A stretch of 64,000 bases of DNA from a phage, in the NCBI GenBank assembly GCA_024673055.1, contig GCA_024673055.1_4537.1. One strand, 5' to 3'. The position numbers were made by a program, and so were the translations under genes. Below are positions 20,183 to 40,039 of this stretch, piece after piece (the first letter of the stretch is position 1; the number at the start of each line of letters is the position of its first letter). The notes under the pieces were generated by a model. That model was not told the DNA's origin. It did not search any database and worked only from the letters and a program-made list of their open reading frames with translations.

Positions 20183-20195
20183 TAAGGAGCTAAAA

Positions 20196-20681: not shown

Positions 20682-20693
20682 GAGGAGATTAGT

Positions 20694-20915: not shown

Positions 20916-20918
20916 GTG

Positions 20919-20946
20919 TTGACATAGTTCTTAAAAAGAGTAAGAT
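20919..20946 (+). promoter_or_regulatory. sigma70-like promoter TTGACA-16-TAAGAT upstream of terC; 5'UTR hairpin GCGGGGA-ATAGT-TCCCCGC at 20959-20977
   Basis: Direct reading. Confidence 0.45.
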
Positions 20947-20994
20947 ATATCACATGAAGCGGGGAATAGTTCCCCGCAAAGAGAGGAGAAAAGA

Positions 20995-21969
20995 ATGCAA
21001 CTTGGTTTCCCAATTATTGATGTAGTTGTTTTAGTTGGTATTTTGGCATTGTCTATTGGTATCGATTTCTTTGGTCATAAAGAGAATAAAGAAATTGGAA
21101 TTAAATCTGCTTTGCTTTGGTCTGTTTTTTGGATTGCTTTAGCTTTAGGATATTACGCATTCATTTGGGTAGAACATGGTAAAGAGTTTGCCGCGCTTTT
21201 CCTAAGTGGCTATGTGTTGGAAAAGAGTCTTTCTGTAGATAACCTGATGGTGTTCATGGCAATTTTTGCAAGCTTTGGAATTAAGAGCACACATCTCCAA
21301 CATAAGATTTTACTTTGGGGGATTGCAGGAGCCATTGTCTTCCGAGGTATTTTTGTTGCAGCAGGGACCGCTTTGTTTAACCTTCATTGGTCGGTCCAAG
21401 TGTTGTTCGGTTTGATTGTAGCTTGGTCTGCCGTGGCTATCATCAAAGGTGGTGACGAAGAAGAGGATATTGATTACTCTAAGCATTGGGCTGTTCGTTT
21501 AGTAGGTAAAGTTCTGCCTGTGCACAATGCACTGGATGGTGAAAAGTTCATCACCATTAAGAATGGTATTAAATATGCAACTCCTGCTCTTCTTTGTGTG
21601 TTTGTTATTGAGCTTACAGATATTGTCTTCTCTTTTGATTCAGTTCCGGCTGTGATCGGTGTGACACAAGAACCTCTGCTAGTTTATTCTGCAATGCTGA
21701 TGGCTGTTCTTGGTTTACGTGCACTTTTCTTTGTGTTAAGTGTGGCTGTGAAATATCTGGTTCACTTAGAGAAAGCTGTTGCTGTGGTTCTGGTGTTTGT
21801 CGGTGCTAAACTTATGTATCACCCGTTCGGTGAAACACTTCATGCCAAATGGTCATTCCTCCCGCATGATATTTCCCCTAACGTAAGTCTGATGATTGTT
21901 CTAGGCACATTAGCTCTTGGTGTTATTGCAAGTTTTATCTTCCCTGAAAAAGAAGAAGCTGCTGTTTAA
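20995..21969 (+). CDS. terC: TerC-family integral membrane protein
   Basis: Multiple TM segments; EKSLSVDNLMVF and ELTDIVFSFDSVPAVIGVT match TerC signature blocks. Confidence 0.75.
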   Translation: MQLGFPIIDVVVLVGILALSIGIDFFGHKENKEIGIKSALLWSVFWIALALGYYAFIWVEHGKEFAALFLSGYVLEKSLSVDNLMVFMAIFASFGIKSTHLQHKILLWGIAGAIVFRGIFVAAGTALFNLHWSVQVLFGLIVAWSAVAIIKGGDEEEDIDYSKHWAVRLVGKVLPVHNALDGEKFITIKNGIKYATPALLCVFVIELTDIVFSFDSVPAVIGVTQEPLLVYSAMLMAVLGLRALFFVLSVAVKYLVHLEKAVAVVLVFVGAKLMYHPFGETLHAKWSFLPHDISPNVSLMIVLGTLALGVIASFIFPEKEEAAV

Positions 21970-21975
21970 TAGATG

Positions 21976-22000
21976 AGCCTCCTTCGGGAGGCTATTTTAT
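21976..22000 (+). terminator. Rho-independent terminator AGCCTCC-TTCG-GGAGGCT + ATTTTAT
   Basis: Hairpin directly after terC stop. Confidence 0.55.
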
Positions 22001-22011
22001 AGGAGAGACTT

Positions 22012-22362
22012 ATGAATAATTTTGATGAAATTCAAGAACTTATTTGGGATTTATCTGGTGATGTGGATTACGTTTTAGATTATCTTTCAAAAGTTTACCC
22101 TGGGGTAAGCGTTATGATTGTGACCAAAGATCCAATTAATTTGCCTCCTAATGTTGTAGCTTGTTGTGGAAGTGGTTCAGGAGAAGTAGAGCCTGTATCT
22201 CGTTGGGAATTAACTAAAGCTGTTTCAAAACGAAACGGTGAAGTTTTGAATATTGATATCGAACAAATATGGACTTCTCCAGCAGCCAAATGGAACGATC
22301 CAAATGGTTGGGATTTGTTCTTCTGGGATAATGAAACTGATGATGAGGTATTTTTAAAATGA
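22012..22362 (+). CDS. hypothetical protein (116 aa)
   Basis: ORF with RBS. Confidence 0.5.
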   Translation: MNNFDEIQELIWDLSGDVDYVLDYLSKVYPGVSVMIVTKDPINLPPNVVACCGSGSGEVEPVSRWELTKAVSKRNGEVLNIDIEQIWTSPAAKWNDPNGWDLFFWDNETDDEVFLK

Positions 22363-22530
22363 AATACTTGTTGGTTGTGTTTGAAAATATCTGTTTTGCA
22401 ATAGGGTTGTTTGTTGTAATTTTTGTATTGACAAGCGTAATCAACGGCAGTAAAGTGAGTTTATACCGAGATGGAGAGCAACTTTATTGCTTCTCTGGAG
22501 ATTTCAAACATAGATGTATTAATAGTCAAA

Positions 22531-22983
22531 ATGAGGAAAGCAAATATGAAAAAACTAGCCCTGATTTTAATTGGTTGTATCTTTTTAACAGCTTGCGAGG
22601 ATGAAACAAATCCTGCACAATACCAACAACCTCCTCAACAATACGCTCAACAAGGATCTGACGGAGATACAACTATTATCAACAATGGTGGCGGTTCTAG
22701 TAGTAGCGGTGTTGGTGAGTTTGCTACAGGTATGTTGTTAGGGCATATGATGAGTGGTGGTAGTAATCGTAACAGTGGAGATTATAACGATAACAGAACG
22801 ATTATTAATAAGCATTATAATACACCTAAACCGAAAACTAATTTTTATGGTAAGCCTAAACAAGAGATAAAAACTTATGAAAAGCCGAGACAAACTTTTA
22901 AAACAAATAGTAGCTATACAACTCGTAAATCTTACAATAGCCCTTTAAGTAAAAAGAGTTCATCTCGTAGCAAGCGACGTTAA
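22531..22983 (+). CDS. putative lipoprotein (Gly/Ser/Asn-rich, basic C-terminus)
   Basis: Signal peptide with lipobox LTAC; start may be 22531 or 22546. Confidence 0.5.
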   Translation: MRKANMKKLALILIGCIFLTACEDETNPAQYQQPPQQYAQQGSDGDTTIINNGGGSSSSGVGEFATGMLLGHMMSGGSNRNSGDYNDNRTIINKHYNTPKPKTNFYGKPKQEIKTYEKPRQTFKTNSSYTTRKSYNSPLSKKSSSRSKRR

Positions 22984-22997
22984 TAAGGAGAAAAACA

Positions 22998-23591
22998 ATG
23001 ACAATTTCTATTCGTACTTCCATTACAGGTGTTAAAAGTTTGCCTAATGCTTTGCAAATCACACGTGCTTTGAGGGATACGTTCTCTGCTGTGGATGAGC
23101 ATAAGATGCTCGATAATCTCTCAAATTGGCCCTATTTTCATTATTTTAAAAACGAAGACGACGAGTTTATAGACGCTGTTTCTTACGGTTATGATTTCGG
23201 TAAGGAAGTTTCCCCTGAAGAATTTGTAGCTACTGTGTTCCCAAACGGTTTGCCTACTCGCAGTAAACGTAAAAAAGGACCAAAAAACAAGAAACGTGCT
23301 ACTAATAAAGCTACCATTTTCTTTACTGATGGCACACAATATACGATTAAAGATTTTGAAGAGGTATCTTATACAGCAGGTGGGAGTCTTTCTTTCTACA
23401 CCATCAAAAAACAAAACTATACGTTCAGCCATGTTTCTAACATGATTGAAATGTTAGTAGAAGATATTGAAAGCGTGGCTGTGTTAGGTATGCATAAAAG
23501 CTTTTTAATTACAAATATTTCAGATTTCAGTGCAAGTTTATCTGGCCCTGATTTTGAAGCCACGACCACGTATTTCGCTTTTAAGGTGTAA
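22998..23591 (+). CDS. hypothetical protein (197 aa)
   Basis: ORF with AAGGAG RBS. Confidence 0.5.
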   Translation: MTISIRTSITGVKSLPNALQITRALRDTFSAVDEHKMLDNLSNWPYFHYFKNEDDEFIDAVSYGYDFGKEVSPEEFVATVFPNGLPTRSKRKKGPKNKKRATNKATIFFTDGTQYTIKDFEEVSYTAGGSLSFYTIKKQNYTFSHVSNMIEMLVEDIESVAVLGMHKSFLITNISDFSASLSGPDFEATTTYFAFKV

Positions 23592-23594
23592 GTT

Positions 23595-24185
23595 ATGCAT
23601 ACCGAGAGAGACTTGCAACTCTTGTGGTGGGAAGTGATGCAGGAAATAAAAGAAGATTTTCCTGTTTACTACAACATGTTACGTGAAGCAGGATATAAAG
23701 CTTGTGTTAGAAACAAAGTGAATAACTCTTTCGGTTGGTGCAACTACCGAGATAAAATTGTTGTTGTAAATTGGCACTTGCATAAGAACTCCACAAGAGA
23801 TATGATCGTGGATACAATGAAGCACGAAATTGCTCATGCTATTGATGGTTGTATGGGTAAGTTTAGTAGGCACGGTGCTCATTGGCAAAAACTGGCAGCA
23901 GAATTAGGGGCTAATCCTAAAGCCACTTCCAAAGAGCCGTTGAACCACGAATATAAATATGTTCTTGTTCTGGTAGATAGGTTTGCGACAAGATGTGTTA
24001 GAGGTTATAATCGTAAACCTAATCGCATGTACCCAGGTAAGCAACCTAATATGTGGTTGAAATCAGATAAAGAAGGGACCGAAGGAAAATTATGGTTGTA
24101 TAAATGGGACGATTGGGTTAAAGTAGCTAAAGAGTACGGTGTTTCACCATATATAAGAGATGCAGAAGAGGAGAATGAAGAATGA
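23595..24185 (+). CDS. SprT-like zinc metallopeptidase
   Basis: HEIAHAIDG (HExxH) followed by HGAHWQKLAAELG, as in SprT-like proteins. Confidence 0.55.
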   Translation: MHTERDLQLLWWEVMQEIKEDFPVYYNMLREAGYKACVRNKVNNSFGWCNYRDKIVVVNWHLHKNSTRDMIVDTMKHEIAHAIDGCMGKFSRHGAHWQKLAAELGANPKATSKEPLNHEYKYVLVLVDRFATRCVRGYNRKPNRMYPGKQPNMWLKSDKEGTEGKLWLYKWDDWVKVAKEYGVSPYIRDAEEENEE

Positions 24186-25294
24186 CAAGTCCATTTTTAA
24201 AAGCAGCTACTGGTGGTCAGAAGAAGCCTGAAATGAGCGTATTTGCTGCAACAACAGATGCAAGTAAATCTGTATTCGCTCCAAGCGTGTTAGATGCCAG
24301 TCCTGTTTATGCACCAGCGGCACCGCAAGAAGTTCCAGTTTTGCCTTCTATGACCCGACAAGAGATTGAAGAGATTGGGGCAGAGGCAGGAACAACCTTG
24401 CGTTCCTTGAATGCCGAGGTGTTAAAACATCAACGTAGTAATCAAGGCGATCAGATGAGTGAACGACTCACAGCTTTGATTAAACAGGCAAAACAACTTG
24501 ATCCAAACTCTATTAAACAAAGCAAGGGTATTACTAAACTCATTAAAAAAGTTATGGGTATGAAAGAAGACCTGTTCGGGGAGTTTGATAATGTTAATAA
24601 CCGTATTGAAGAGTTGGTAAAGAACCTTCAAATGGATATTCGCAAAGAAGAAGATTCCTTAGTATATCTTGAAAAGCTACATCAAGCTATTGGACAATAT
24701 GCTGCAAGTTTGAACCGAGATATGCAGCTTCTAACAGCAACCTATGAAAAAGAAGAACAAGCTTTGGCTGCTCTTCCAGAAGATGCAGTAGAACAGCGAC
24801 AAGTGATCCGAGATACTTTGGATCTTCTGGAGATTCGTATTGCAGATTTAAAAGCATTGCGCCTACTGTGTGTCCAAATGGGACCGCGTGTACAAGGTAT
24901 GCAAAAAGTTTCTGCAAGCTTAATGCGATCTGCGCGTAACATAGTAAATAATGTTATTCCTGCTTACTCTGCTAACTTCTCAATGTATATCGAGAGCTTA
25001 CGTCAAATGAAAGCAGCAGAGACGCAGAATAACGTTCTTGATGAATTTAACCTGGCAATTAAACTGGGTAGCGATCTTGCCACACAGAATCAGATCGAAG
25101 CAGCAGCACTGGCTAACCGTCAAGTGTTGGATATTGAAACTCTGCGTCACGATCAGGAAAACTTGGTTAAGATGTTGGAAGAAACTAACCGCATCAATAC
25201 GGAAGCCCGTGCTGCTCGTGTTGATTATATTAATGAAGTTCAGTCTCTGGAAGACGGGATGGTAGCTGCTGTGAAACGAGGGCTTGGTAAATGA
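24182..25294 (+). CDS. coiled-coil protein, possibly TelA-like toxic-anion-resistance family
   Basis: 370-aa helical protein inside a Ter-like gene neighbourhood; family assignment by size and context only. Confidence 0.4.
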   Translation: MTSPFLKAATGGQKKPEMSVFAATTDASKSVFAPSVLDASPVYAPAAPQEVPVLPSMTRQEIEEIGAEAGTTLRSLNAEVLKHQRSNQGDQMSERLTALIKQAKQLDPNSIKQSKGITKLIKKVMGMKEDLFGEFDNVNNRIEELVKNLQMDIRKEEDSLVYLEKLHQAIGQYAASLNRDMQLLTATYEKEEQALAALPEDAVEQRQVIRDTLDLLEIRIADLKALRLLCVQMGPRVQGMQKVSASLMRSARNIVNNVIPAYSANFSMYIESLRQMKAAETQNNVLDEFNLAIKLGSDLATQNQIEAAALANRQVLDIETLRHDQENLVKMLEETNRINTEARAARVDYINEVQSLEDGMVAAVKRGLGK

Positions 25295-25488
25295 GAATCC
25301 GTATCTATATAATTGATGAGGACATTGGTGTCCGTTATGATGACGAAAAACGATTCGCACCGATGGGAGGCATATATCCCCCAAGTGTTCTAGCAGTTTG
25401 TCGTGATTGTTATATTTATGAAGGTTGTCGTAACTTCCGTAAATTCGAACTCCTTGCAGATATTGACTTCAATGAGGAGGAGGAGTAA
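25291..25488 (+). CDS. small Cys-containing protein (65 aa)
   Basis: ORF, CRDCYIYEGC. Confidence 0.4.
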   Translation: MRIRIYIIDEDIGVRYDDEKRFAPMGGIYPPSVLAVCRDCYIYEGCRNFRKFELLADIDFNEEEE

Positions 25489-25661
25489 TGAAAATATTAC
25501 GAGTGAATATTGAAACTGCTTGGTGTGGATGCAATGAGGTTGTGGATATCGAAATTGAAGATGATATGTCTCAAGAGGATATAGAAGATCTTGCACACGA
25601 AACCTTTCAGGATTATTGTAATTACGGGTTCCATATTTTAGAGGAGGAAGAAGATGTATAA
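25488..25661 (+). CDS. hypothetical small acidic protein (57 aa), not in ORF track
   Basis: ATG overlapping previous stop (TAATG); GGAGGAGG RBS. Confidence 0.3.
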   Translation: MKILRVNIETAWCGCNEVVDIEIEDDMSQEDIEDLAHETFQDYCNYGFHILEEEEDV

Positions 25662-26052
25662 TCCAACAGGTATTCTTTTAAAACTTACAGTAACAGACCC
25701 TACTCTTTTCACTAAGTTAGCAAGTGGTGAAGTTTATGAAGTAATGAAAGATGATGACGGTTGGTGTTATCTTTGTGGCTACTTCCTCTGTGATGCAGAA
25801 GAGTTAGAATCCATTGTAACTAAAGGTTTTTATGAAGAACCAGGGTTCCGTGTGGAAACTACGCAGAAACCTGATACCATTACGTTGACTCGACAGGAAC
25901 TGATCACAATCATTGAAGATGCTTTTATTGATGGCTGGAATACACAAGATAATGACTGGGGTGGACCCGAAGCTTTTCTGGAACATCATAAAGCTTATGG
26001 AGAATTTTGTGAAACCACTGTAGCTCTTGATAATCTGAAGGAGGGTTTGTAA
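25654..26052 (+). CDS. hypothetical protein (132 aa)
   Basis: ORF with RBS. Confidence 0.45.
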   Translation: MYNPTGILLKLTVTDPTLFTKLASGEVYEVMKDDDGWCYLCGYFLCDAEELESIVTKGFYEEPGFRVETTQKPDTITLTRQELITIIEDAFIDGWNTQDNDWGGPEAFLEHHKAYGEFCETTVALDNLKEGL

Positions 26053-26615
26053 TGGGTTGTTTTAGCTTTTTGTGCAAAGAATCGGGCAAAGCTGCCCTTT
26101 CTACTTCTTTCGACGGATCACCTTGCTACCTCTTTCTTTTGAAGGACGGTGTTGTTATTGAAGAGATGTATGGCAACTATGATAGTTATGGTTGTGTTTT
26201 CTCTGGAAAGGAGGATGAAAATGGTGTTCGTGAACGATTTGAATGGGCTATGGATTGGAGTAAGGTTTGTGATTTGATGCATTCCTCAAATCCAAGGGAC
26301 GGTATCGCTATGGTGCTGGAAGAGTACTTTACAGGTGAAATCCCTACAGAACAATCTGACGGAGATCCTAACCAAGGTTGGGGTGATGGTGAAGAAGATC
26401 CAGATTGTTTTTTCAGCACAGAAAAGAATAAGTTTAAACGTGTTGACAACCCTTATCACAAAGTGCATAATACTCTCATTGAAACAGAAGATGACAAGAT
26501 GGAAATTGAAGAAGATGATCCTCTTGTAACACTTCCTATAAGTGAGTTACAAAAGATCACTAAGGAAGCTTACGATTTGGGCTTCAAAATTGGTAGAGGA
26601 GGTATGCGTGTTTAG
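26052..26615 (+). CDS. hypothetical acidic protein (187 aa)
   Basis: ORF with RBS. Confidence 0.45.
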   Translation: MGCFSFLCKESGKAALSTSFDGSPCYLFLLKDGVVIEEMYGNYDSYGCVFSGKEDENGVRERFEWAMDWSKVCDLMHSSNPRDGIAMVLEEYFTGEIPTEQSDGDPNQGWGDGEEDPDCFFSTEKNKFKRVDNPYHKVHNTLIETEDDKMEIEEDDPLVTLPISELQKITKEAYDLGFKIGRGGMRV

Positions 26616-26886
26616 ATTCAATATTCAAGAAGAAAAAAGTCAAGATTTACCTATTGCTTTCGAAGATCTTGACGTAGGGGCAACATTCATGTATTATGAT
26701 GCCTATGAAGACGCAGGGTTGGATACCTACCGTAACTTGGTGTTCATTAAAAATTCCACAAACAGTGCGATTTGTATTAATGGATCACTAGCACAACGAG
26801 GCTATACTCATTGCATCCCACCAGATACAAATATGGTGGAAGTAGATTTAGAAGTTACCAATATTACACTTAAGAAGGAGAAATAA
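26608..26886 (+). CDS. small protein, paralog A of 27908-28177
   Basis: GTG start after AGGAGG; shares (I/F)xDLDVG(A/D)TF(M/V)Y...GLD...EV(D/E)L(E/T)VT(N/G)ITLK with 27908-28177. Confidence 0.45.
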   Translation: MFRFNIQEEKSQDLPIAFEDLDVGATFMYYDAYEDAGLDTYRNLVFIKNSTNSAICINGSLAQRGYTHCIPPDTNMVEVDLEVTNITLKKEK

Positions 26887-26887
26887 T

Positions 26888-27682
26888 ATGTCCGAGAAAA
26901 TCAGCCTGAAAAAACGTCAAGAAAACCTTGCTTTCTCTCTGAAAAAGAATAAGAACCTGAATGAAGGTAAGATTGTTCTTCGTGTAGCATGTGCTCTAGA
27001 TATTTCTGGTAGTATGCATGGTCTATATTCTAGTGGGGTAGTGAGTGATTTTGTAGGTAAACTGCTTCCTTTTGGTATGCTGTTCGACGATAATCAACAA
27101 ATTGATATGTGGGCCTTCAATACGAGTTCCCAAGAGCTTACTCCAGCAACAGCAGACGTTTACGATGACTATGTTGGTAAATGTATGCGTAATGTTCGTA
27201 TCGGAGGTGGAACAAATTACGCCCCTGTAATGGCAGATATCTACGATGAGTATTTTGGCACTGTTACCAAATATATTACCACTAAACAAGTGGTACAAGA
27301 GGAGGCTCCAAAGAAAGGCTTCTTTAATCGTCTGCTTGGTAAAACTGAAACAGTGTCTGTAGAGCGTGAAAAAGTTGTAGCTGTATCTGAACCAGGTGCT
27401 GACGTTACCCCTGGTGTTGTATTCTTCCAGACGGATGGTGAGAATGGTGATCCTAGTGCTGTTCGTCGTCTTATTGAAGAGAATAAGAATAAACCTATTT
27501 ATTGGTTCATGGTTGGCGTTGGTAATGAGAAGTTTGGCTTCCTGAAAGAACTGGCAAATGCTTATGATAATGTTGGTTTTATTGGCATTAAAGATTTAGA
27601 CTTGACAGATTCAGAGCTTTATGACAAACTCTTATCTGAAGAGTTCGGAGAGTGGGTTGTTAAAGTAGGTGCTAAAAAATGA
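26888..27682 (+). CDS. von Willebrand factor A (vWA) domain protein, TerY-like, with TerD-like N-terminal leader
   Basis: MIDAS motifs DISGSM, GGTN, QTDGE; N-terminus KISLKK...SLKK resembles TerD N-terminus. Confidence 0.7.
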   Translation: MSEKISLKKRQENLAFSLKKNKNLNEGKIVLRVACALDISGSMHGLYSSGVVSDFVGKLLPFGMLFDDNQQIDMWAFNTSSQELTPATADVYDDYVGKCMRNVRIGGGTNYAPVMADIYDEYFGTVTKYITTKQVVQEEAPKKGFFNRLLGKTETVSVEREKVVAVSEPGADVTPGVVFFQTDGENGDPSAVRRLIEENKNKPIYWFMVGVGNEKFGFLKELANAYDNVGFIGIKDLDLTDSELYDKLLSEEFGEWVVKVGAKK

Positions 27683-27927
27683 TCGACGAGCTTGCCTCTC
27701 AAGTCATAGAAAATTATTGGCGCGAGAGAGAAGCTTTCATTATGCGCAGTCTCAAAGAGTATTTCATTGGGACTGTGCGAATGGAAGATATTGTAAGTAG
27801 AGTAGAGATTCATGTATGGCCCGATTATGAAGAATGGGTTGACAAAGAAAATGAAAATGCTATAATTCTTCGTATATACAAACCGGAGATAACATTAGGA
27901 GGAAGAAGTGTTAAACTTCGAAATTGA
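27679..27927 (+). CDS. hypothetical protein (82 aa)
   Basis: ORF, start overlaps previous stop. Confidence 0.4.
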   Translation: MIDELASQVIENYWREREAFIMRSLKEYFIGTVRMEDIVSRVEIHVWPDYEEWVDKENENAIILRIYKPEITLGGRSVKLRN

Positions 27928-28177
27928 TGAGCAAAAAGTAAATAAACGATGTCTTACCATTAAAGATTTGGATGTAGGAGATACTTTCGTCTATGAAAAT
28001 GCATTTGACGAAAATGGTTTAGACCTTAGTGAAATCATTGTTTATTTAAAAGTAGATGATGGGGAAAATGATTGTTCTGCTGTAGAACTAAACCATCATG
28101 CACAATTAGTATCAATCCAAAACACATCCAAGCTTTTGGAAGTAGAATTGACTGTAACTGGTATTACACTTAAATAA
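27908..28177 (+). CDS. small protein, paralog B of 26608-26886
   Basis: See 26608-26886. Confidence 0.45.
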   Translation: MLNFEIDEQKVNKRCLTIKDLDVGDTFVYENAFDENGLDLSEIIVYLKVDDGENDCSAVELNHHAQLVSIQNTSKLLEVELTVTGITLK

Positions 28178-28192
28178 TAGAGGAGACAAAAG

Positions 28193-28795
28193 ATGACTGA
28201 TAAAATTTCCCTGAAAAAAGGCTCTAGCGAAAAAATTTCCCTGAAGAAAGTTGCTCCGGCTCTGAAAGAACTGCGCCTGGAATTCTCTTGGAAATCTGAT
28301 TCTAAACTGGATCTGGATGTAAGTGCACTGGTTTGTCGTCACAATGCCACTGGCAATCCTGAAATGCTGTCTGCACGTCACCTGGTTTGCTATGCTAACA
28401 AGTTTGATCCTGAACGTTCTACCTTCGCTGGTGACGATGTTCGTGATGGAACTGGCAGCATGGAGCAGATTGATATTACTCTGGCTAAAATCTCTCCTGA
28501 TGCACAAGAGATTGCCTTTGTTCTGACCATTGATGATGATACAGGTCTGAAACGTTTTGGTCATGCTTCTGAAGGTATGCTTAAAATCTTTGACTCCGAG
28601 CGCAATGTTGAAATTCTGGATTTTGACTTCCTGGCTCCTGAAGTAGCTGGCAACACAATCTGCCACGTGGCTTCCTTGGTTCGTGAAGATGGGGAATGGA
28701 AGCTGAAAGCATATGGTGTAGGTAAAGCTGGTCTGGATATTTGTGATGTGGTGATGGCCTTCGGTGGTAAAAAAGAATGGTATGAATGTCCATAA
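28193..28795 (+). CDS. terD: TerD-family protein
   Basis: Duplicated KISLKK leader, DLDVSAL, AGDDVRDGTGS, AFVLTIDDD, DGEWKLKAYGVG align to TerD-family blocks; CTG/CGT/GGT-dominated codon usage. Confidence 0.8.
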   Translation: MTDKISLKKGSSEKISLKKVAPALKELRLEFSWKSDSKLDLDVSALVCRHNATGNPEMLSARHLVCYANKFDPERSTFAGDDVRDGTGSMEQIDITLAKISPDAQEIAFVLTIDDDTGLKRFGHASEGMLKIFDSERNVEILDFDFLAPEVAGNTICHVASLVREDGEWKLKAYGVGKAGLDICDVVMAFGGKKEWYECP

Positions 28796-28813
28796 TAATT
28801 AACAAATGATTTT

Positions 28814-28836
28814 GAGGGGGAGAAATCCCCCTCTTG
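28814..28836 (+). terminator. Rho-independent terminator GAGGGGG-AGAAAT-CCCCCTC
   Basis: Hairpin after terD stop; T-run weak. Confidence 0.5.
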
Positions 28837-28862
28837 CAATAAAGCCTCTATCGTGTTATACT
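28834..28862 (+). promoter_or_regulatory. sigma70-like promoter TTGCAA-17-TATACT
   Basis: Direct reading upstream of the 28895 gene. Confidence 0.45.
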
Positions 28863-28894
28863 AGAAATTCGTTAACTTAAAAAGGAGGCAAAAT

Positions 28895-29416
28895 TTGCTG
28901 ATAAAAAACTTTGTAACAGTTGCGTTACTATCCTTAACTGCTTTTACATTTACACCTGTTGTGGCGAAAGCCGAAGCTGCAAACGTAAAAACCGCTAAAG
29001 TAGTTCACAAATGTACAAAGCAATATAATGATAAAATTCTATTAGCTTGTGCAATTTACGCAGAAGGTCGCGGTCTGGGTAAAAAAGGAATGAATGCCGT
29101 TGGGAATGTGGTAATCAACAGAAGAAATGATACCTACTTCCCTAACACAGTCAGAGGAGTCTTGTTCCAGAAAGGACAATTCTCATATGCGAAAACTTTT
29201 AACGTAACAGAGAAAGATAAGTGGCAGGAAGCAAAAGCAATAGCGGAGCGTTTACTTTATCTAGAGAAACATTTTCCTGAATTGCGGTCTGTTTTAGATG
29301 TTACTAAAGGTGCTCTATACTTCAAGAAACGGAATATAAAGACACACTGGGAACGTGATATGCGTCTTGTTTATCGAGATAAAGTGCATGGTTTCTATCT
29401 ACCAAAGGGGAGTTAA
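28895..29416 (+). CDS. SleB-like cell-wall hydrolase with signal peptide (candidate endolysin)
   Basis: AIYAEGRG...MNAVGNVVINR...FPNTVRGVLFQKGQFSY matches the SleB/Hydrolase_2 pattern; TTG start. Confidence 0.65.
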   Translation: MLIKNFVTVALLSLTAFTFTPVVAKAEAANVKTAKVVHKCTKQYNDKILLACAIYAEGRGLGKKGMNAVGNVVINRRNDTYFPNTVRGVLFQKGQFSYAKTFNVTEKDKWQEAKAIAERLLYLEKHFPELRSVLDVTKGALYFKKRNIKTHWERDMRLVYRDKVHGFYLPKGS

Positions 29417-29417
29417 A

Positions 29418-29702
29418 ATGCAAGAAGATAATACTGTTGTTGTAGCAAGTTACCTGGTTGTCGGTCTTACCGAAGAGGATGTATACTACACCCGTAAGCA
29501 TTTAGAAGCATACGCTACTTTGTTTATGGAAGATGAAAAGGATGTAGATAAATATAGCATTGATATGATCAACGACAGTATTTATCCTTGTATGGTTCTT
29601 AAAGTAGATGCTGTGTTGTGGGAGCGTTTTGCAAGGACTCATGATGCTGTAGAATGCTCCGCAGTAATGTCTCAAAACAACATTTTAGGGGAGATTCATT
29701 GA
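29418..29702 (+). CDS. hypothetical protein (94 aa)
   Basis: ATG at 29418 (track ORF starts upstream at 29355). Confidence 0.4.
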   Translation: MQEDNTVVVASYLVVGLTEEDVYYTRKHLEAYATLFMEDEKDVDKYSIDMINDSIYPCMVLKVDAVLWERFARTHDAVECSAVMSQNNILGEIH

Positions 29703-29932
29703 TGGGAGAAGTCATTGAAGTCAATTTTCGCACTAAACAGAAAGTGCAAAAATATGTCGTTATTAAAAACATTTGCGTTGTCTGCTTCAATACAGTAATA
29801 TACGACTCACGACGCGGAGAAAACGAAAATGAACCTTACATTGAAATTTCTAAGAACAAAGGTCAATGTATTTGTAAGAACTGTGCAGTAGCTATTAAGG
29901 AGGTTGTAAATGAAAACGCTTGGGACCAATGA
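29702..29932 (+). CDS. small Cys-containing protein (76 aa)
   Basis: ATG overlapping previous stop (TGATG); CVVCF...CICKNC. Confidence 0.4.
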   Translation: MGEVIEVNFRTKQKVQKYVVIKNICVVCFNTVIYDSRRGENENEPYIEISKNKGQCICKNCAVAIKEVVNENAWDQ

Positions 29933-30101
29933 AACTGGCGAAATCTCTCTTCAAGAAGTGACAAACGACAAACTGATTAAGCTACGAGACGTAGCTCGTG
30001 ACCATCTTCAAGAATCTTTTAAAGAATACATGGAAGCACGAGATCGTGTCATCCAAATCCAACAGGAAATGATTAAACGCGGGATTGTAGCCGACAGTTA
30101 A
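29910..30101 (+). CDS. hypothetical protein (63 aa)
   Basis: ORF. Confidence 0.35.
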   Translation: MKTLGTNETGEISLQEVTNDKLIKLRDVARDHLQESFKEYMEARDRVIQIQQEMIKRGIVADS

Positions 30102-30117
30102 TATAACGGAGGGGAGA

Positions 30118-30681
30118 ATGATTTATTATATTACTCCCTATCTGACAGGAAATATCGGCAAGGCTATCAATGAAGCCATTGCCGTTCTTCCAGATGATAG
30201 TTGGGTGTGTTTAAGAGATACCGATACAATGTTCCTCCTACCTGATCAACCATCTATGCTTGAAGAGCTTGTTATGTCAAACCCGCCTTTTGATGTAATA
30301 GGTGCAACTTGTAACAGGTTAGGCAGTGGTTATCAGCTTTTCTCTAACCAAATTAACGATGATCCAGATATTCTAAACCATATAGAATATGCTAAGATTG
30401 CAAAAGAATATCATAAAGTGAGTGTTGAAGAAGTTCCTTTCGGAACACCTCTGGCAGGTTTCTTTTTGCTTTTTAGAAAATCATTGTGGAATGAAATTCC
30501 TTTCGAAGAAAAATCTATCCAATTCGACTTAATTTTCTCTCGCACTTTACATGAAAAAGGAAAGAGGTTAGGATTGATGCGGGGAATGTATCTGTTTCAC
30601 ATTTACAGATTAGGTCAAACAAATCCTCAACGGTCTATACATCATTTATTACACTGTCACGATCACAGTAAAACTATTTAG
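30118..30681 (+). CDS. hypothetical protein, possibly glycosyltransferase-like
   Basis: LRDTDTMF (DxD-like); weak. Confidence 0.4.
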   Translation: MIYYITPYLTGNIGKAINEAIAVLPDDSWVCLRDTDTMFLLPDQPSMLEELVMSNPPFDVIGATCNRLGSGYQLFSNQINDDPDILNHIEYAKIAKEYHKVSVEEVPFGTPLAGFFLLFRKSLWNEIPFEEKSIQFDLIFSRTLHEKGKRLGLMRGMYLFHIYRLGQTNPQRSIHHLLHCHDHSKTI

Positions 30682-30689
30682 GAGAGAAA

Positions 30690-31373
30690 ATGGAAAATAT
30701 TAAAATCGGAGTGGGTGTTATCACTGTAGGTGTCCGTCCACTTAAAGACTACCTTGTAACAGATCCACGTGCAGATTTTCGAGTATTCAACGATCCAGAC
30801 CGTAAAGGTGTAGCTTATGCCAGGAATGAACTTATGCACCAGTTTTATGAAGAAGGTTATGATTATTGGTTTATTTTTGACGACGATTGCTACCCAGTCA
30901 TGGAAGGATGGGAAACATACTTTGTAGATCAAGCTGTTTCTGGAGGATGGGATTTCTTTGGTATGCCGGAGTACTTCAAAGATAAAGTTGTTGGAAGCAA
31001 AGGAGAAGTTATTCTCTGGGAACTTGCAATGTGTCAATTTGCAATGTATTCTCGTGCCGTTGTTGAGAAGATGGGTTATTTCCGCCCTTACACTCACGGT
31101 TATGGTTTTGAAGATGCCGAATGGGGACACCGTTTGAAAGCTGCTGGTTTGAATCATGGTATTCAGGCAACACCTTGTCCACTTCGTATCATGGCTTATA
31201 TCCACCCAGACGATGTTTTTGGAAACAATCCTATGCCTTTTGCTAATCTGACAAAAGAAGAGAAAGAAGCTGCTATCGGGATTAACTGGGAAGAATATAA
31301 AGCATCTTTAGAGGATATTAAAAATGGGAAAATCCGAATTTCCTATGAGGAGGCACTGGCACATGTCAAATAA
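30690..31373 (+). CDS. GT-A fold glycosyltransferase-like protein
   Basis: FIFDDDCYP (DxD), YGFEDAEWGHRL. Confidence 0.55.
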   Translation: MENIKIGVGVITVGVRPLKDYLVTDPRADFRVFNDPDRKGVAYARNELMHQFYEEGYDYWFIFDDDCYPVMEGWETYFVDQAVSGGWDFFGMPEYFKDKVVGSKGEVILWELAMCQFAMYSRAVVEKMGYFRPYTHGYGFEDAEWGHRLKAAGLNHGIQATPCPLRIMAYIHPDDVFGNNPMPFANLTKEEKEAAIGINWEEYKASLEDIKNGKIRISYEEALAHVK

Positions 31374-32310
31374 AAAATGGTCTAAACTAAAAATTGATGC
31401 GAAACCTCACAGCGGTTGTGACTATCATCGTATTGTTATGCCACTTAACAACCATAATCTTCAACCTAAGAAAGATGTTGTTGTGTTTAACCGTATCCAC
31501 TCTAAAGGTGCAGAATACGTTTTATCTTTGAAACGTCAAGGTGTTAAGATTGTTGTAGATTTAGATGATTTCTACCAACTTAATCCAGAACATTATTTAG
31601 CAAGTCTATACGAGTCAAACACTCATACTATTGTAGCTATGGTTAAGCTTGCTGATGTGGTTATTGTGACTACAGAATATTTGGCATATAAGATCCGTCA
31701 CTTAAATAGGAATGTTGTTGTGATCCGAAATGCACTTCCTTTTGATAGTGGACAATTCACTTTGTCAAATGATCGTTCATCCGGTACCCCTGTTGTATGG
31801 GCTGGAGGTGCTAGTCACGAACCAGATTTACGACTAGTCTCTAATACTTTCGATGATGAGCTTCTTACTATTGCGGGATATGAAGCATCGCAGAGCATCA
31901 CGGGACAAGAGTGGATTAAGATTCGCAGAAATTTACCAAATGCTAAATATAAAGCTGCTGTAAAAGATTTAGATAATTACATGAGTGTTTACGAAAGTCA
32001 TGCTATTGCTATAGCTCCTTTGGTAGATAATGATTTTAATAATTGTAAAAGTAATCTCAAAATCCTAGAAGCTGGAGCAAAGGGTATTCCGATTGTTTGT
32101 TCTAAGGTATTACCTTATTTTAACCCTGTAGATGCTCGTGCTGTTGCTTACGCAGAGAACAAAGCAGAATGGCATTACGAAATTGTTAAGCTTCTTCGCA
32201 ATCCAAACTATCGGGAAGATCGTGGCTTGTTCTTGGCTGAACATGTTCGAACACATTATAATCTGGCAGATGCAAATGAGTTGCGACGCCAGGTTATTGA
32301 AAGTTTGTAG
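31363..32310 (+). CDS. GT-B fold glycosyltransferase-like protein, paralog 1
   Basis: SNLKILEAGAKGIPIVCS resembles GT4-type E-A-x-A-x-G-x-P motif; ATG at 31363 after GAGGAGG. Confidence 0.55.
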   Translation: MSNKKWSKLKIDAKPHSGCDYHRIVMPLNNHNLQPKKDVVVFNRIHSKGAEYVLSLKRQGVKIVVDLDDFYQLNPEHYLASLYESNTHTIVAMVKLADVVIVTTEYLAYKIRHLNRNVVVIRNALPFDSGQFTLSNDRSSGTPVVWAGGASHEPDLRLVSNTFDDELLTIAGYEASQSITGQEWIKIRRNLPNAKYKAAVKDLDNYMSVYESHAIAIAPLVDNDFNNCKSNLKILEAGAKGIPIVCSKVLPYFNPVDARAVAYAENKAEWHYEIVKLLRNPNYREDRGLFLAEHVRTHYNLADANELRRQVIESL

Positions 32311-32317
32311 GTGAAGT

Positions 32318-33262
32318 ATGGGACAAATAATTCTTGACAATCGTAACGGAATCAATTATAGTGTCTGCGATTTCCATAGGGTAGTGCTGCCTTACTCAAG
32401 GCAGTTCTCTTCACAACCTAAATACAACGTTTTCGTTTTTAACGGAGTGCCAACAAAAGGTAAAGAGGGCTTTTTAGCCCTTAAAAACCTAGGCTTTAAA
32501 ATGGTTATGGATTTGGATGACTCTTTAGTTATTCCAAAAGGACACATGTTAGAAGGTATTTTTGAATCAGGTATTCGTGAACATTTAAAATGGTTTTTAG
32601 AGCACAGCGATCTTGTTACAACTACGACACCTGCTTTGCAAGTTGAACTTTCACAATACAATGATAATGTGCACATAATCCCTAATGGACTTCCTTACGA
32701 TGAAGGTCAATTTGTGTTGACCCGTGATCGCTACTCCAAAACTCCATTAGTCTGGGCTGGAAGTGAAACACATAAACAAGATTTGGCTATCTTACCTGAT
32801 TTTGGTAAAGATCTTACAATATGTGGTTTTCGTAGGGATTCTGAAGTTTTAAGTAGTCGTGAATGGTCTGTAATCAGAGAAAATGTAGCACCAACTTGTG
32901 TTTATGAAGGTGTAAGACCATATGCCAACTACATGGAATCTTACGATGGTCATCAAATCAGTCTTGCGCCATTGATTGATAACGTGTTTAATAATGCAAA
33001 AAGCAATCTTAAAATTCTTGAGGCAGGTGCTAAGGGTTTACCTTTGATCTGTTCTCCTCGTGAGAATTATCATACGCAAGAGTTTAAAGATTTGTTATTC
33101 TTTGCTGAAACACCTTCCGAGTGGAAAGATATTACGGAATACTTATTAAGTGCTCCCGATGTTTGCATGGAGAAAGGATTAGCATTAGCTAAGTATGTCA
33201 GGACTCATTATCACATTGATGTGTTGAATGAGCGTCGTAGACTTTTATTTGAGGAGCTATAA
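32318..33262 (+). CDS. GT-B fold glycosyltransferase-like protein, paralog 2
   Basis: Collinear similarity to 31363-32310 (VVFN..., DLDD, SNLKILEAGAKGLPLICS, YVRTHY). Confidence 0.55.
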   Translation: MGQIILDNRNGINYSVCDFHRVVLPYSRQFSSQPKYNVFVFNGVPTKGKEGFLALKNLGFKMVMDLDDSLVIPKGHMLEGIFESGIREHLKWFLEHSDLVTTTTPALQVELSQYNDNVHIIPNGLPYDEGQFVLTRDRYSKTPLVWAGSETHKQDLAILPDFGKDLTICGFRRDSEVLSSREWSVIRENVAPTCVYEGVRPYANYMESYDGHQISLAPLIDNVFNNAKSNLKILEAGAKGLPLICSPRENYHTQEFKDLLFFAETPSEWKDITEYLLSAPDVCMEKGLALAKYVRTHYHIDVLNERRRLLFEEL

Positions 33263-33540
33263 TGATTAACACTTTTGATTTTGAATACACCACTCGTAAC
33301 GGGAAAGCTTTAGTCGTGGAGGTGGATTACTATTATGAAGAGCCTAACCCGCTTTCTCGTGAAAGTGATTGGGATTACCACGGAGGGCTTTTAATTGACG
33401 GTATTCGTTTTTACGAAGGCTCTACAGAAGTTTTTGAAAAAGATTTAAATGTAACTGTAGCAGAAATTGCTTTCCAATTTAGAAAGCACATGGAAGAACT
33501 AGAAGCAGAATATATGATGGAGACTAACGAACCATTTTAA
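33262..33540 (+). CDS. hypothetical protein (92 aa)
   Basis: ORF, start overlaps previous stop. Confidence 0.45.
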   Translation: MINTFDFEYTTRNGKALVVEVDYYYEEPNPLSRESDWDYHGGLLIDGIRFYEGSTEVFEKDLNVTVAEIAFQFRKHMEELEAEYMMETNEPF

Positions 33541-33552
33541 CAGGAGAACAAA

Positions 33553-35331
33553 GTGTCGCACATTATAACTAAATATGGATTTGATGTTGATCTTAGCAAG
33601 GAAGGGCATACAGGTTGTCCGCGCTGCATGAAAAATGGCAAGGATCGCTCTCGTAATAACCTGATGGTTTATGGATTAGATTCTAATGGAGAGCATAAAG
33701 GTGCTAAGTGCTTTGCGTGTGAATACACTATTCCTAGCGTAGAATGGTTACGAGAAAATGGTGAAGTTTTAGAAGAAGAGGAGGAGATTGTGGGTTCGGA
33801 ATTTAATAAACAGATTCATCGTAAAATTGTTCAAGAAACATCAACCAACCCACGTGGTTATCGAGGCATTAAAGAAAAAGTTTCATCTTTCTATGGTGTT
33901 CGTTATGAATACCGTCAGGAAGGGGATCAGATGGTAGTAGAAAGTTGTTTATATCCAACTACTATCGGTAAAGAATTGGTTGGTTTTAAGCGTCGTATTC
34001 ATCCTAAAGATTTCAGTAAACCTATTGGTCAAGTAGGTAAAGATGTAGATCTTTTTGGACAAATTCGTTTTGCAGACCGTTCTCATACTGTGGTAATTAC
34101 AGGTGGTGAACACGATGCTCTGGCAGCTTATCAAATGCTGTCTGAAAACTTGGACAACAAATATGAACTTCCAGCAGTAGTTAGTGGCACAACTGGTGAA
34201 ACCAGTATGTATAAACAAGTTCAGGCACAATATCCTTTTTTTGAAAAATTTAAGAAGATTATTGTTTGCATGGATAATGACAAAGCAGGTAATGAGGCAT
34301 TTGAAAATATTGTTAAGGTGCTGCCTCGTAACAAAGTCTACCGTATGCAGATGGATCTTAAGGATGCCAATCAGTATCTGGAAGAAGGTCGTGCAAAGGA
34401 TTTCGTAAAAGCTTTTTGGAGTGCTCGTCTATACACCCCAGCAGGTGTTTATGCTTCTAATGTCTTGTATGAAGCTGCATTAGAATGCTTGGAATCCAAG
34501 ATGATTACCTTGCCTCCTTTTATGCGTGTTGCTGCAAATATGCTGGGTGGTGGTTTAGTAGAGGAAGAGATTACAGTCATCCTGGCAAAGACCAGTATCG
34601 GTAAAACTTTGATGGTGAACGAGATCACCAAACATATTATTGTTGCGCACCCAGAACATACCCTAGGTATTCTGTCCTTGGAAGCAACTTATAAGAAATA
34701 TTCTCGTAACCTGTTGTCCTCGTTCCTGCATATTCCTCTACACAGGAAAACACCGGAAGAGAAATTTCAAATCTTGGAAGAGAATAAAGAAAAAATCCTA
34801 GATTTTTACGAAAGAGAAGATGGATCACCACGTTTTTATGTATGTGATGATCGTGGAGCAGATGTGGAGTCTATCAAAGAAAAAGTTTTGGAGATGATCA
34901 TCTATTTTGGAGTAACAATTCTTGTTATCGACCCTTATTCTGATTTGCTTTCTGGTATGGATGTTCAAGCCCAGGAAGAGTTAGCAACATGGTTGAAGCG
35001 CATCATGAAAGAGTATGCTATAACTATTATCGTCATCTCACACGTTAAGAAATCGGCTAATGGTGGCAATGAACACTTAACAGAGGACGATGCAATGGGT
35101 AGTAGTTTCTTGGCTAAAGGTGCTGGTATTACCTTGGCTTTGGAACGAGATAAAGCCGCTGAAGACCCTGTAGAACGCAATACGACTCATTGCTTTATCC
35201 TAAAAAACCGTGAGTTTTCGGAAACTGGTCCGGCAGGGCAGTTTTACTATGACATTAGAACTGCAACTCTGCATGACAAAGAGCAGTATTTCAACAATCC
35301 TGCTAATTTGCCTACGGATAGCAACTATTAA
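33553..35331 (+). CDS. bifunctional DNA primase-helicase (T7 gp4-like)
   Basis: N-terminal zinc ribbon CPRC...CFAC, TOPRIM-like VVITGGEHD/CMDNDKAG, Walker A AKTSIGKT, Walker B LVIDPYSD; GTG start. Confidence 0.85.
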   Translation: MSHIITKYGFDVDLSKEGHTGCPRCMKNGKDRSRNNLMVYGLDSNGEHKGAKCFACEYTIPSVEWLRENGEVLEEEEEIVGSEFNKQIHRKIVQETSTNPRGYRGIKEKVSSFYGVRYEYRQEGDQMVVESCLYPTTIGKELVGFKRRIHPKDFSKPIGQVGKDVDLFGQIRFADRSHTVVITGGEHDALAAYQMLSENLDNKYELPAVVSGTTGETSMYKQVQAQYPFFEKFKKIIVCMDNDKAGNEAFENIVKVLPRNKVYRMQMDLKDANQYLEEGRAKDFVKAFWSARLYTPAGVYASNVLYEAALECLESKMITLPPFMRVAANMLGGGLVEEEITVILAKTSIGKTLMVNEITKHIIVAHPEHTLGILSLEATYKKYSRNLLSSFLHIPLHRKTPEEKFQILEENKEKILDFYEREDGSPRFYVCDDRGADVESIKEKVLEMIIYFGVTILVIDPYSDLLSGMDVQAQEELATWLKRIMKEYAITIIVISHVKKSANGGNEHLTEDDAMGSSFLAKGAGITLALERDKAAEDPVERNTTHCFILKNREFSETGPAGQFYYDIRTATLHDKEQYFNNPANLPTDSNY

Positions 35332-35350
35332 GGGCTTCGGCCCTTTTATT
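35331..35350 (+). terminator. Rho-independent terminator GGGC-TTCG-GCCC + TTTTATT
   Basis: Hairpin immediately after primase-helicase stop. Confidence 0.5.
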
Positions 35351-35361
35351 AAAAATACCTG

Positions 35362-35390
35362 TTGACAACTTTACGGAAGGGACTTATACT
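35362..35390 (+). promoter_or_regulatory. strong sigma70-like promoter TTGACA-17-TATACT
   Basis: Near-consensus hexamers. Confidence 0.5.
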
Positions 35391-35422
35391 TGTCTCATCA
35401 ACCAAACAAGAGGAGAAGTAAA

Positions 35423-35854
35423 ATGCGTATGACAATCGATCTGAATGCAAAAGTTAAAGCTGCTGGTGCTCTGGGTGCTGGTGTTATTAAACACAAACAA
35501 GCGTTGGCATTTGCCATCCCACATATGATTGTTGAGGATCATCCTGAAGAGTTTGCTGTAAAAGTTGTTGAGAATAATGTCTCTGTTATTGAACATCTTC
35601 CAACTGGACGTTCTTACCGTGTTGTTTCTTCTAAAGGTTTCCGTTTCGATGTAAGCCCTTCTTTCACAAAAGGTGCTGGTCGTAGTAAAGTGGGTATTCT
35701 TTCTTACAAATATTATATCGATAAAGTTGCAGATGGTGTTGCCTTCTGTCGTGTAAGTGAAGGTAAAGTAGATATCATCTTTAAAAATACCAAAAACATG
35801 GTTATTTCTGACGATGGTAAAGTTGACCTCACTATTGAGTTCGCTAACAACTAA
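35423..35854 (+). CDS. hypothetical protein, likely highly expressed (143 aa)
   Basis: ATG at 35423 after AGGAGAAG; CTG/CGT/GGT-rich codon usage. Confidence 0.55.
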   Translation: MRMTIDLNAKVKAAGALGAGVIKHKQALAFAIPHMIVEDHPEEFAVKVVENNVSVIEHLPTGRSYRVVSSKGFRFDVSPSFTKGAGRSKVGILSYKYYIDKVADGVAFCRVSEGKVDIIFKNTKNMVISDDGKVDLTIEFANN

Positions 35855-35863
35855 GGAGGACTA

Positions 35864-36658
35864 TTGAGCAAGTTGAACACACTTGATCAATATTACACTA
35901 ACCCCGCTTATGCGGGGTTCTTATGTGATAAGATCAAAGAAATTTTTGGAGAGGAAGCTAACTACGTAGAACCATCTGCGGGAGAAGGAGCTTTCTCTTC
36001 TTGTTTTAAAAACATAACTTCTTTTGATATTGACCCTAAGTTTGAAGATTGTATTGAGGCAGATTTTTTAGCTCAATCTGTTGAGTCTGTTGGTAGTGTA
36101 ACTGCTTTTGTCGGTAATCCCCCGTTTGGAAAAAATGCTAGTCTTGCCATTAAGTTCTTTAACCATTGTGCTGAAATGTTGGATAACGAAGGTGGTATTT
36201 GTTTTATCTTGCCTCGCACATTTCAAAAAATCTTTTTTGCACACAAACTAAATCCCCACATGCATCTTCTTTACGAAGAAGAATGTCCAAAAGGATCTTT
36301 TATTCTTCATGGAGAACCTTGGGATGTTCCTTGCGTATTCCAGATATGGATTAAACGCAATGAGAAGCGTTCTCCCGTTGTTTTAGGAGAGAATCGACTG
36401 TTCGTATTAGGTAACAGTAAAGACTACGATATAGCCGTTAGGAGAGCGGGAGCAAGTGCAGGTAAAGTGTTATCAGAAGAAGATTCTTTATCTGAAGCAT
36501 CCACCTATTTTTTAAAAGCCTTGACTTCTGATCTTAAAACGCGTATCATTGAGGCTTACCCGTTACTTAAAGCTGAAGCTAGTAAAACTGCGGGAGTAAG
36601 AAGTTTAAGTTTAAAAGAACTTCAGTGGGTTCTGGAGAACATTAGAAAGGAGGAATAG
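35864..36658 (+). CDS. SAM-dependent N6-adenine/N4-cytosine-type methyltransferase (orphan)
   Basis: Motif I EPSAGEGAF, motif IV NPPF; TTG start after GGAGGA. Confidence 0.55.
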   Translation: MSKLNTLDQYYTNPAYAGFLCDKIKEIFGEEANYVEPSAGEGAFSSCFKNITSFDIDPKFEDCIEADFLAQSVESVGSVTAFVGNPPFGKNASLAIKFFNHCAEMLDNEGGICFILPRTFQKIFFAHKLNPHMHLLYEEECPKGSFILHGEPWDVPCVFQIWIKRNEKRSPVVLGENRLFVLGNSKDYDIAVRRAGASAGKVLSEEDSLSEASTYFLKALTSDLKTRIIEAYPLLKAEASKTAGVRSLSLKELQWVLENIRKEE

Positions 36659-39990: not shown

Positions 39991-40008
39991 TCTAACGTAT
40001 TGTTTTAT

Positions 40009-40030: not shown

Positions 40031-40039
40031 GGAGAAGAT

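Follow-up and report, generated by a model that had tools for sequence, protein, structure and literature searches.

Three genes in a 64,000-nucleotide stretch of phage DNA (contig GCA_024673055.1_4537.1, hereafter the window) show a pronounced shift toward the codons preferred by highly expressed genes of E. coli. They are the genes of a TerD protein (28193–28795), of a 143-residue protein that we call p143 (35423–35854) and of a protein resembling single-stranded DNA-binding protein (SSB-like; 41668–42600), and each of these intervals corresponds exactly to an open reading frame (ORF), as had been proposed. We consider that these are very probably long-resident phage genes under translational selection for very abundant products. 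The original prediction, which was made on the codons of these genes, had offered strong translational selection (very high expression) or a separate origin as explanations, and every comparative test that we performed supported the former, as the shift is toward host codons, is shared by the virion proteins and is kept in diverged orthologues. We infer the high abundance of the proteins, the activity of the promoters and the timing of expression from codons and sequence signals.

Positions 27000–43000 of the window are 98–99% identical to Escherichia phages anhysbys, ESCO5, EF1-1 and other Phapecoctavirus (Stephanstirmvirinae), and based on this match the source of the window is a phAPEC8/ESCO5-like E. 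coli myophage of the genus Phapecoctavirus. The genome is AT-rich (~39% GC), and TTA/TTG/CTT, AGA, GGA, ACA and ATA are the usual codons in the majority of its genes. The ESCO5 annotation, whose record has the reverse orientation, was mapped onto the window and showed the plus strand from ~6.4 to 42.6 kb to be an early/middle arm that encodes ribonucleotide reductases, a Ter gene set, glycosyltransferases, a primase-helicase, a Dam methylase, a DNA polymerase and the SSB. From 42.7 kb on, tail and tail-fibre genes are encoded on the minus strand. The set of ORFs used for the codon analyses of the window, 96 in total, was called only on the strand of each of these transcription domains.

To quantify the bias we used the codon adaptation index (CAI), with weights derived from 30 ribosomal-protein, tufA and fusA genes of E. 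coli K-12 (NC_000913.3), and a Monte-Carlo test in which the amino-acid sequence of each gene was fixed and its codons were drawn from the rest of the window. The genes of TerD (CAI 0.640, z 7.1), p143 (CAI 0.600, z 4.5) and the SSB-like protein (CAI 0.558, z 6.2), all on the plus strand, ranked first to third of the 96 ORFs, for which the mean CAI was 0.347 (sd 0.077), and their deviation from the average was significant in each case (p ≤ 5e-5). As a scale, the identical weights gave values of 0.52, 0.45 and 0.66 for rpoA, secY and rpsJ of E. coli, respectively. In terD, Leu is mostly encoded by CTG (17/19) and Arg mostly by CGT (6/8), as the original prediction had described, with GGT at 9/15 Gly codons, and the genes that flank it are indeed unlike it, having CTG at none of 12 Leu codons (27908–28177) and at two of 16 (28895–29416). 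The SSB-like gene has CTG at 12/18 Leu, CGT at 7/10 Arg and GGT at 17/26 Gly codons. The claim that the same pattern occurs at 35423–35854 held for Arg (CGT 6/6) and Gly (GGT 10/11) of p143, but not for Leu (CTG 2/6).

When the three genes were pooled and compared with the other 93 ORFs by Fisher tests, CTG was found to encode 31 of their 43 Leu residues versus 208 of 1627 elsewhere (p = 4e-18), where it makes up 13% of Leu codons and TTA and TTG together 48%. TTA/TTG were correspondingly depleted in the three genes (p = 9e-9), as were AGA/AGG (0/24, p = 7e-4) and ATA (0/42, p = 6e-4), such that AGA, AGG, ATA and TTA have no occurrence across the three genes. The codons that they favor are CTG and, for the most part, the T-ending optimal codons of E. 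coli. The GC profile and the profile of GC at third codon positions (GC3) were flat along the window with no rise at the three genes, whose GC3 values (terD 0.36, p143 0.25 and SSB-like 0.24) are to be compared with 0.31 ± 0.05 for the window. On these grounds an island of unusual base composition was rejected, and the three islands are a matter of codon choice, not of base composition. In addition, neighbors predicted to be cotranscribed with the three genes are unbiased (CAI 0.341 for 27908–28177, 0.337 for 35864–36658 and 0.318 for 41259–41651), which indicates that the signal is specific to the genes and not to an operon or a time of expression. The next gene by z score after the three is that of a vWA-TerF-like protein (26888–27682, plus strand; PF10138, 130 bits), whose adaptation is moderately raised (CAI 0.461, z 3.5, CGT at 8/8 Arg codons).

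The phage's own abundant proteins, which serve as the decisive control, are encoded outside the window, and for this comparison we studied ESCO5, an annotated relative of 98% identity, for which positions 1–142000 were put together from five loci and 260 ORFs were scored. The major head protein (MCP; CAI 0.651) and the head decoration protein (0.640) ranked first and second in a genome with a mean CAI of 0.349, and were followed directly by the orthologues of TerD (0.617), p143 (0.612) and the SSB-like protein (0.608). The scaffold (0.512) and the tail sheath (0.510) ranked seventh and eighth. By z score the top six were the MCP, sheath, SSB-like protein, TerD, head decoration protein and p143. 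A principal component analysis of relative synonymous codon usage, which requires no reference set, gave the same grouping for 149 genes with 100 codons or more: the first component explained 16% of the variance, was correlated with CAI (r = 0.83), had loadings that set CGT, CTG, TCT, GCT and GGT against AGA, TTA, ATA and AGG, and carried at its positive end the genes of the SSB-like protein, MCP, TerD, sheath, p143, vWA-TerF and head decoration protein. Codon by codon, correlation coefficients of 0.71 and 0.58 were obtained between the shift of the three genes and, respectively, that of four structural genes and the weights from E. coli ribosomal-protein genes.

The bias is also found in relatives of the phage. 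TerD was identified at the matching position in 146 phage records, with identities of at least 99% in 65 of them and of 80–95%, at the syntenic position, in 67 more. The TerD proteins of phi92 (Justusliebigvirus) and Klebsiella phage KP2025 have 81% and 85.5% amino-acid identity to that of the window, and their genes, with CAI values of 0.595 and 0.635, are the top genes of the respective 40-kb regions. The vWA-TerF gene adjoining terD has a CAI of 0.51–0.52 in these two phages, and the SSB-like gene of phi92 one of 0.543. Only 50–60% of codons at conserved degenerate residues are identical between the window and phi92, and the bias has thus been maintained through extensive synonymous change. 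A p143 homologue with 50% identity, encoded on a metagenomic contig, sits between a primase-helicase and a family-A polymerase (PolA), as in the window, and its gene is the best adapted there (CAI 0.624); the SSB-like gene of a sister metagenomic contig has a CAI of 0.632. Conservation of synonymous sites, considered as a sign of stronger constraint, was correlated with CAI only weakly and not significantly (rho 0.29, p 0.17).

These orthologues bear directly on the proposal of a separate origin, according to which the phage gained the three genes only lately, from its host, from a plasmid of the host or from another phage with E. coli-like codons, and they have yet to drift to the AT-rich usage of the phage. 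There are observations that would fit such an acquisition. Ter genes are found on plasmids and islands of enterobacteria, and tblastn searches of 72,556 plasmids with TerD identified 2,277 that have TerD-family genes. The tail of the SSB-like protein is the same in sequence style as the E. coli SSB tip and 56 nt of it, the only part of the gene to be matched by blastn among 5,426 complete genomes of E. coli, were found in prophage ssb genes of three Shiga toxin-producing (STEC) strains; p143, moreover, has no orthologue in the regions of phi92 and KP2025 examined. However, blastn searches of the same 5,426 genomes with terD and p143 returned no match, the plasmid TerD proteins are mostly ~31% and at best 36.5% identical to that of the phage, and the GC3 of the three genes (0.24–0.36) is well apart from that of the E. 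coli genes measured (0.44–0.61). The genes of TerD, vWA-TerF and SSB are syntenic in Justusliebigvirus and the Klebsiella phage and keep the bias despite a turnover of ~40–50% of codons, the p143 homologue has the matching position and the top CAI in its contig, and the capsid genes of the phage itself show the matching shift. A recent transfer from host or plasmid was rejected on the lack of donor DNA in the E. coli genomes and plasmids searched, the typical GC3 and the bias of syntenic orthologues, and we regard a separate origin of this kind, which the results did not bear out, as extremely improbable.

Two further explanations leave the genes in the phage and change what is selected. In one, the timing of expression and not its amount is decisive, in that the three genes would be translated very early, before phage tRNAs accumulate, and would have to do without the codons served by those tRNAs at any level of expression. 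No tRNA genes were found in the window, but relatives carry theirs elsewhere in the genome, ten in all (Arg-tct, Gly-tcc, Thr-tgt, Gln-ttg, Pro-tgg, Ser-gct, Asn-gtt, Ile-gat and two Met-cat), and these serve AGA, GGA, ACA, CAA, CCA and other codons. The scarcity in the three genes of AGA (0/24), GGA/GGG (7/52) and ACA (5/33) would be expected from such early translation, as would the position of the genes in the early/middle arm, the promoter-like sites of sigma-70 type upstream of them and a codon profile that differs in detail from that of the late structural genes. Yet other genes of the same predicted units and arm are unbiased (CAI 0.32–0.34), CAA (82%) and CCA (43%) are still used although both are decoded by phage tRNAs, the strongest shift, of Leu to CTG and off TTA/TTG, involves no phage tRNA, and the late capsid genes show the main shift too. 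We consider an explanation by timing unlikely. In the other, selection would act on the RNA apart from tRNA supply, for example against RNase E sites rich in AU, against nuclease or restriction motifs or against structures, to give a long-lived mRNA. The stable hairpins that follow terD and the SSB-like gene, as well as the depletion of the AU-rich codons TTA, ATA and AGA, are in line with this. Against it, GC3 and overall GC are barely altered because the favored codons are mostly T-ending, and the change tracks E. coli ribosomal-protein usage for each codon and is common to the capsid genes. This codon-by-codon match to the host, together with its sharing by capsid genes, is predicted by tRNA-based selection and not by a generic avoidance of AU, and we find selection at the RNA level very unlikely.

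Several observations weigh against translational selection for abundance, or against its simplest form. We found no transcriptome or proteome of a Phapecoctavirus in the literature searched, in which one paper referring to proteomics was in silico only. The SSB gene of KP2025 is only modestly adapted (CAI 0.453, z 1.4), and p143 has few Leu codons, with CTG at just two of the six. Promoter-like sites in general, of which there were 50, were not in excess of those in shuffled sequences (43.6 ± 6.2). In addition, the codon profile of the three genes departs from that of the late structural genes (ESCO5 64025–70557) in two respects: the shift of two-fold NNY codons toward C is absent (0.33, equal to the genome, versus 0.455 in the late structural genes), and Gln is encoded by CAG at 18% versus 49%. 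The three genes and the capsid genes are therefore not under one and the same selection regime. These data suggest that there are two slightly different optimal-codon regimes, and the NNY and CAG differences may reflect the different temporal classes of the three genes and the late genes.

Translational selection would operate as follows. Products required in very large amounts would have driven the three genes to the codons of abundant E. coli tRNAs (CTG, CGT, GGT, GCT, ACT and TCT), and the absence of AGA, AGG, ATA and TTA would allow fast passage of ribosomes with no stalls on rare codons. A strong promoter of sigma-70 type before each unit, in combination with a GAGGAG ribosome-binding site, would provide strong early or middle expression. 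The abundance of the SSB-like protein would be a consequence of its coating single-stranded DNA stoichiometrically, while p143 would be an abundant protein of the replication module that possibly binds DNA. A stoichiometric and non-catalytic role is envisaged for TerD, together with its partner vWA-TerF and the TerC and TelA of the phage; a module for Ca2+ binding or membrane stress would be one example. More tentatively, and at somewhat less than even likelihood, we speculate that TerD, along with vWA-TerF, belongs to the handful of most abundant proteins in the subfamily and is made at capsid-like levels from its own sigma-70 promoter. It would then act stoichiometrically, for example as a buffer that binds Ca2+ or counters membrane stress, or by diverting a host response as a decoy, so that terD would be no passenger gene for "tellurite resistance". 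In this view p143 would be a novel protein of high abundance that belongs to the replisome or binds DNA.

The sequences upstream of the three genes are compatible with such expression, with the proviso that our promoter and terminator calls are consensus matches whose function is predicted. The best promoter-like site between 26.5 and 43 kb, TTGACA-16-TATAAT preceded by TG (27839–27866, plus strand), matches the sigma-70 consensus at 12/12 positions and lies upstream of an 89-residue ORF (27908–28177) and terD. A second, TTGACA-17-TATACT (35362–35390, plus strand; 11/12), is situated in the 91-nt gap before p143, and a third, TTGACA-18-TAGGAT with TG (41221–41250, plus strand; 10/12), precedes the ORF 41259–41651 and the SSB-like gene. 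Of the four plus-strand sites in the 26.5–43 kb region with a perfect −35 element and at least 10/12 matches, three are thus the ones just upstream of these units. In phi92 and KP2025, TTGACT/TTGACA-16-TAAAAT/TAGAAT was read by eye directly upstream of terD. A Shine-Dalgarno sequence GAGGAG is present on the plus strand before all three start codons, at 28180–28185 (7 nt before the ATG of terD), at 35410–35415 (before the ATG of p143 at 35423) and at 41656–41661 (before the SSB-like ATG at 41668). Together, these promoter-like and GAGGAG sites suggest strong early or middle expression by the host RNA polymerase.

Structures were also predicted around the ends of these units. A GC-rich hairpin with no long T tract follows the terD stop codon (28814–28833, plus strand; −16.9 kcal/mol, z −3.5 versus shuffles), and is possibly a terminator or a stabilizer of the 3′ end. 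A predicted bidirectional intrinsic terminator (42640–42663; −18.7 kcal/mol, z −5.4) lies between the SSB-like gene and the converging gene of a tail protein, and a small hairpin with a T-rich run after the stop codon of the primase-helicase gene (35330–35345, plus strand) is weakly terminator-like (−9.3 kcal/mol, z −1.65). The arrangement upstream of terD differs among the relatives: in the window two small, poorly adapted ORFs (82 and 89 residues; 27679–28177) separate the vWA-TerF gene from terD, while in phi92 and KP2025 there is just a promoter-bearing gap of 72–95 nt.

The TerD protein comprises 200 residues and matched PF02342 with 99 bits (gathering cut-off 25.3), and its residues 5–183 matched the solved structures 2KXT (E = 2.5e-15) and 3IBZ (E = 4e-14). 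On these matches, the product of 28193–28795 is a bona fide TerD-domain protein. The acidic Ca2+-binding motif of TerD is reportedly, in the paper describing 2KXT, of the GDN(R/L)TG(E/A)GDGDDE type. The corresponding stretch of 2KXT, GDNRTGEGDGDDE, aligns to GDD-VRDGTGSMEQ in the phage protein, in which several of the acidic residues are replaced, and the DLDxSA segment is kept as DLDVSA. The gene is the last of a Ter set (18706–28795) that encodes a HAD-like hydrolase, PRTase_3, a Macro-like protein, TerC, an SprT-like protease, TelA, the vWA-TerF-like protein and TerD, and that is interspersed with small ORFs of no known function. Pfam models for TerC (PF03741), TelA (PF05816), vWA-TerF (PF10138) and PRTase_3 (PF15610) were matched within 19.3–28.8 kb, and none of the proteins of the set matched the defence-system models of PADLOC. 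By these domain assignments the phage encodes much of a stress system of the Ter type, in which the vWA-TerF-like protein is likely the partner of TerD. GenBank records MG065650.1 ("Campylobacter phage B15") and MG065689.1 ("A110a") contain TerD proteins that share 99.5% and 80.8% identity with the one in the window; these are the identities of E. coli Phapecoctavirus and Justusliebigvirus records, and the Campylobacter host label looks doubtful.

The SSB-like protein (310 residues) is encoded in the replication module and is annotated as SSB in other records. It has a predicted N-terminal beta-barrel, helical domain and disordered linker, followed by an acidic tip (DFDDDIPF) like that of E. 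coli SSB and by 15 extra residues. Its match to E. coli SSB (1EQQ) and to SSB profiles (PHROG, NCBIfam and PDB) is confined to the C-terminal tail, and the Pfam SSB domain (PF00436) was not found in it. An AlphaFold2 model with a pLDDT (predicted local distance difference test) of 79 has the beta-barrel at residues 1–125 and a four-helix domain at residues 156–253, and the best Foldseek matches of this model in the PDB were OB domains, with weak scores (E at least 0.026, template modelling score at most 0.47). The chain does not end at DDDIPF-COOH as in a bacterial-type SSB, as the IPF is internal with no free carboxylate and is followed by APIGLQYGRNFLHCF, encoded by the last 15 codons (42553–42600). 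Two alternative C-termini exist in the family: most members, including that of ESCO5, end at MDFDDDIPF, and the proteins of the window phage, phi92 and scattered distant members have 15–17 extra residues with a conserved [AS]P[IVL]GL[QP]Y motif. The DNA after the IPF codons has been replaced between ESCO5 and the window, and not point-mutated.

The gene of p143 lies between those of the primase-helicase and the Dam methylase/DNA polymerase. Its product belongs to phrog_9938, whose function is not known, and searches of Pfam, PHROGs, NCBIfam, PADLOC and the PDB with the single sequence and two profiles identified no relative of known function. An exhaustive profile search of 1.8 billion proteins produced 21 representatives, all unannotated, and the family has a conserved motif, PSxTKGxGRxK. 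An AlphaFold2 model from an alignment of six sequences (pLDDT 46) was too poor to use.

Two other genes attracted attention during the codon analyses. At 0.523, the raw CAI of a 65-residue ORF at 8557–8754 (phrog_27862, no known function) is exceeded in the window only by those of the three genes, but its z score of 2.3 is at this short length not significant; its ESCO5 orthologue has a CAI of 0.537. The gene of a 385-residue AAA-like protein is extremely codon-adapted in KP2025 (locus L008, 9382–10542; CAI 0.624, z 9.3) and raised in phi92 (gp190; locus L007, 9670–10830; CAI 0.486), while the counterpart at 2770–3909 on the minus strand of the window, of 43–46% identity, is only moderately raised (CAI 0.404, z 3.2).

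The findings leave general knowledge of phage codon usage unchanged, as the phenomenon is already known in phages, and the advance, a modest one, lies in predicting capsid-like levels of TerD and p143 across the subfamily. Codon adaptation serves here as a free predictor of expression. It flags TerD and p143 as comparable to the capsid protein in predicted amount, which makes them priority targets for proteomics and knock-outs in Phapecoctavirus and Justusliebigvirus, phages that have uses in therapy and biocontrol, and it gives a foothold on the question of why lytic phages carry genes of the Ter system.

TerD, the SSB-like protein and the codon bias itself can be compared with systems that are better known. 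Like the TerD family members of Klebsiella (2KXT) and Streptomyces (3IBZ), the phage protein holds a full-length TerD domain, and as in Ter systems it is accompanied, in the same arm of the phage, by TerC, TelA, a vWA-TerF-like protein and PRTase_3. It differs from those family members in being phage-encoded and codon-tuned like a capsid gene, and from enterobacterial plasmid TerD in the low identities described above. A comparable association of Ter genes was reported in a Klebsiella phage (PMC8386662), and the terD genes or operons of unrelated huge gut phages (Jug phages) are highly transcribed (PMC12363816). In light of the latter, the view that a phage terD tuned for high expression is unexpected is only mildly true. 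The SSB-like protein shares with E. coli and phage SSBs the PPMDFDDDIPF tail, and its gene is located in the replication module; its predicted N-terminal beta-barrel, with weak matches to OB folds, may be a further resemblance. It differs from E. coli SSB in its extra helical domain (156–253), its internal IPF and its lack of the Pfam SSB domain.

Selection for host codons in highly expressed phage genes was reportedly described for T7 by Sharp et al. in 1985 and for T4 by Cowe and Sharp in 1991. In a broader survey, the bias of phage head and tail genes to host-preferred codons was ascribed to translational selection (Lucks et al. 2008, PMC2266997). The present case is similar to that survey in that a subset of genes with host-optimal codons, head and tail proteins included, stands out from an otherwise poorly adapted phage genome independently of GC3, as judged in both by CAI relative to highly expressed host genes and by randomization that keeps the amino acids. 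It differs in that three non-structural genes match or exceed most structural genes of the phage, and do so with a codon profile that lacks the shift to C-ending two-fold codons seen in the late genes.

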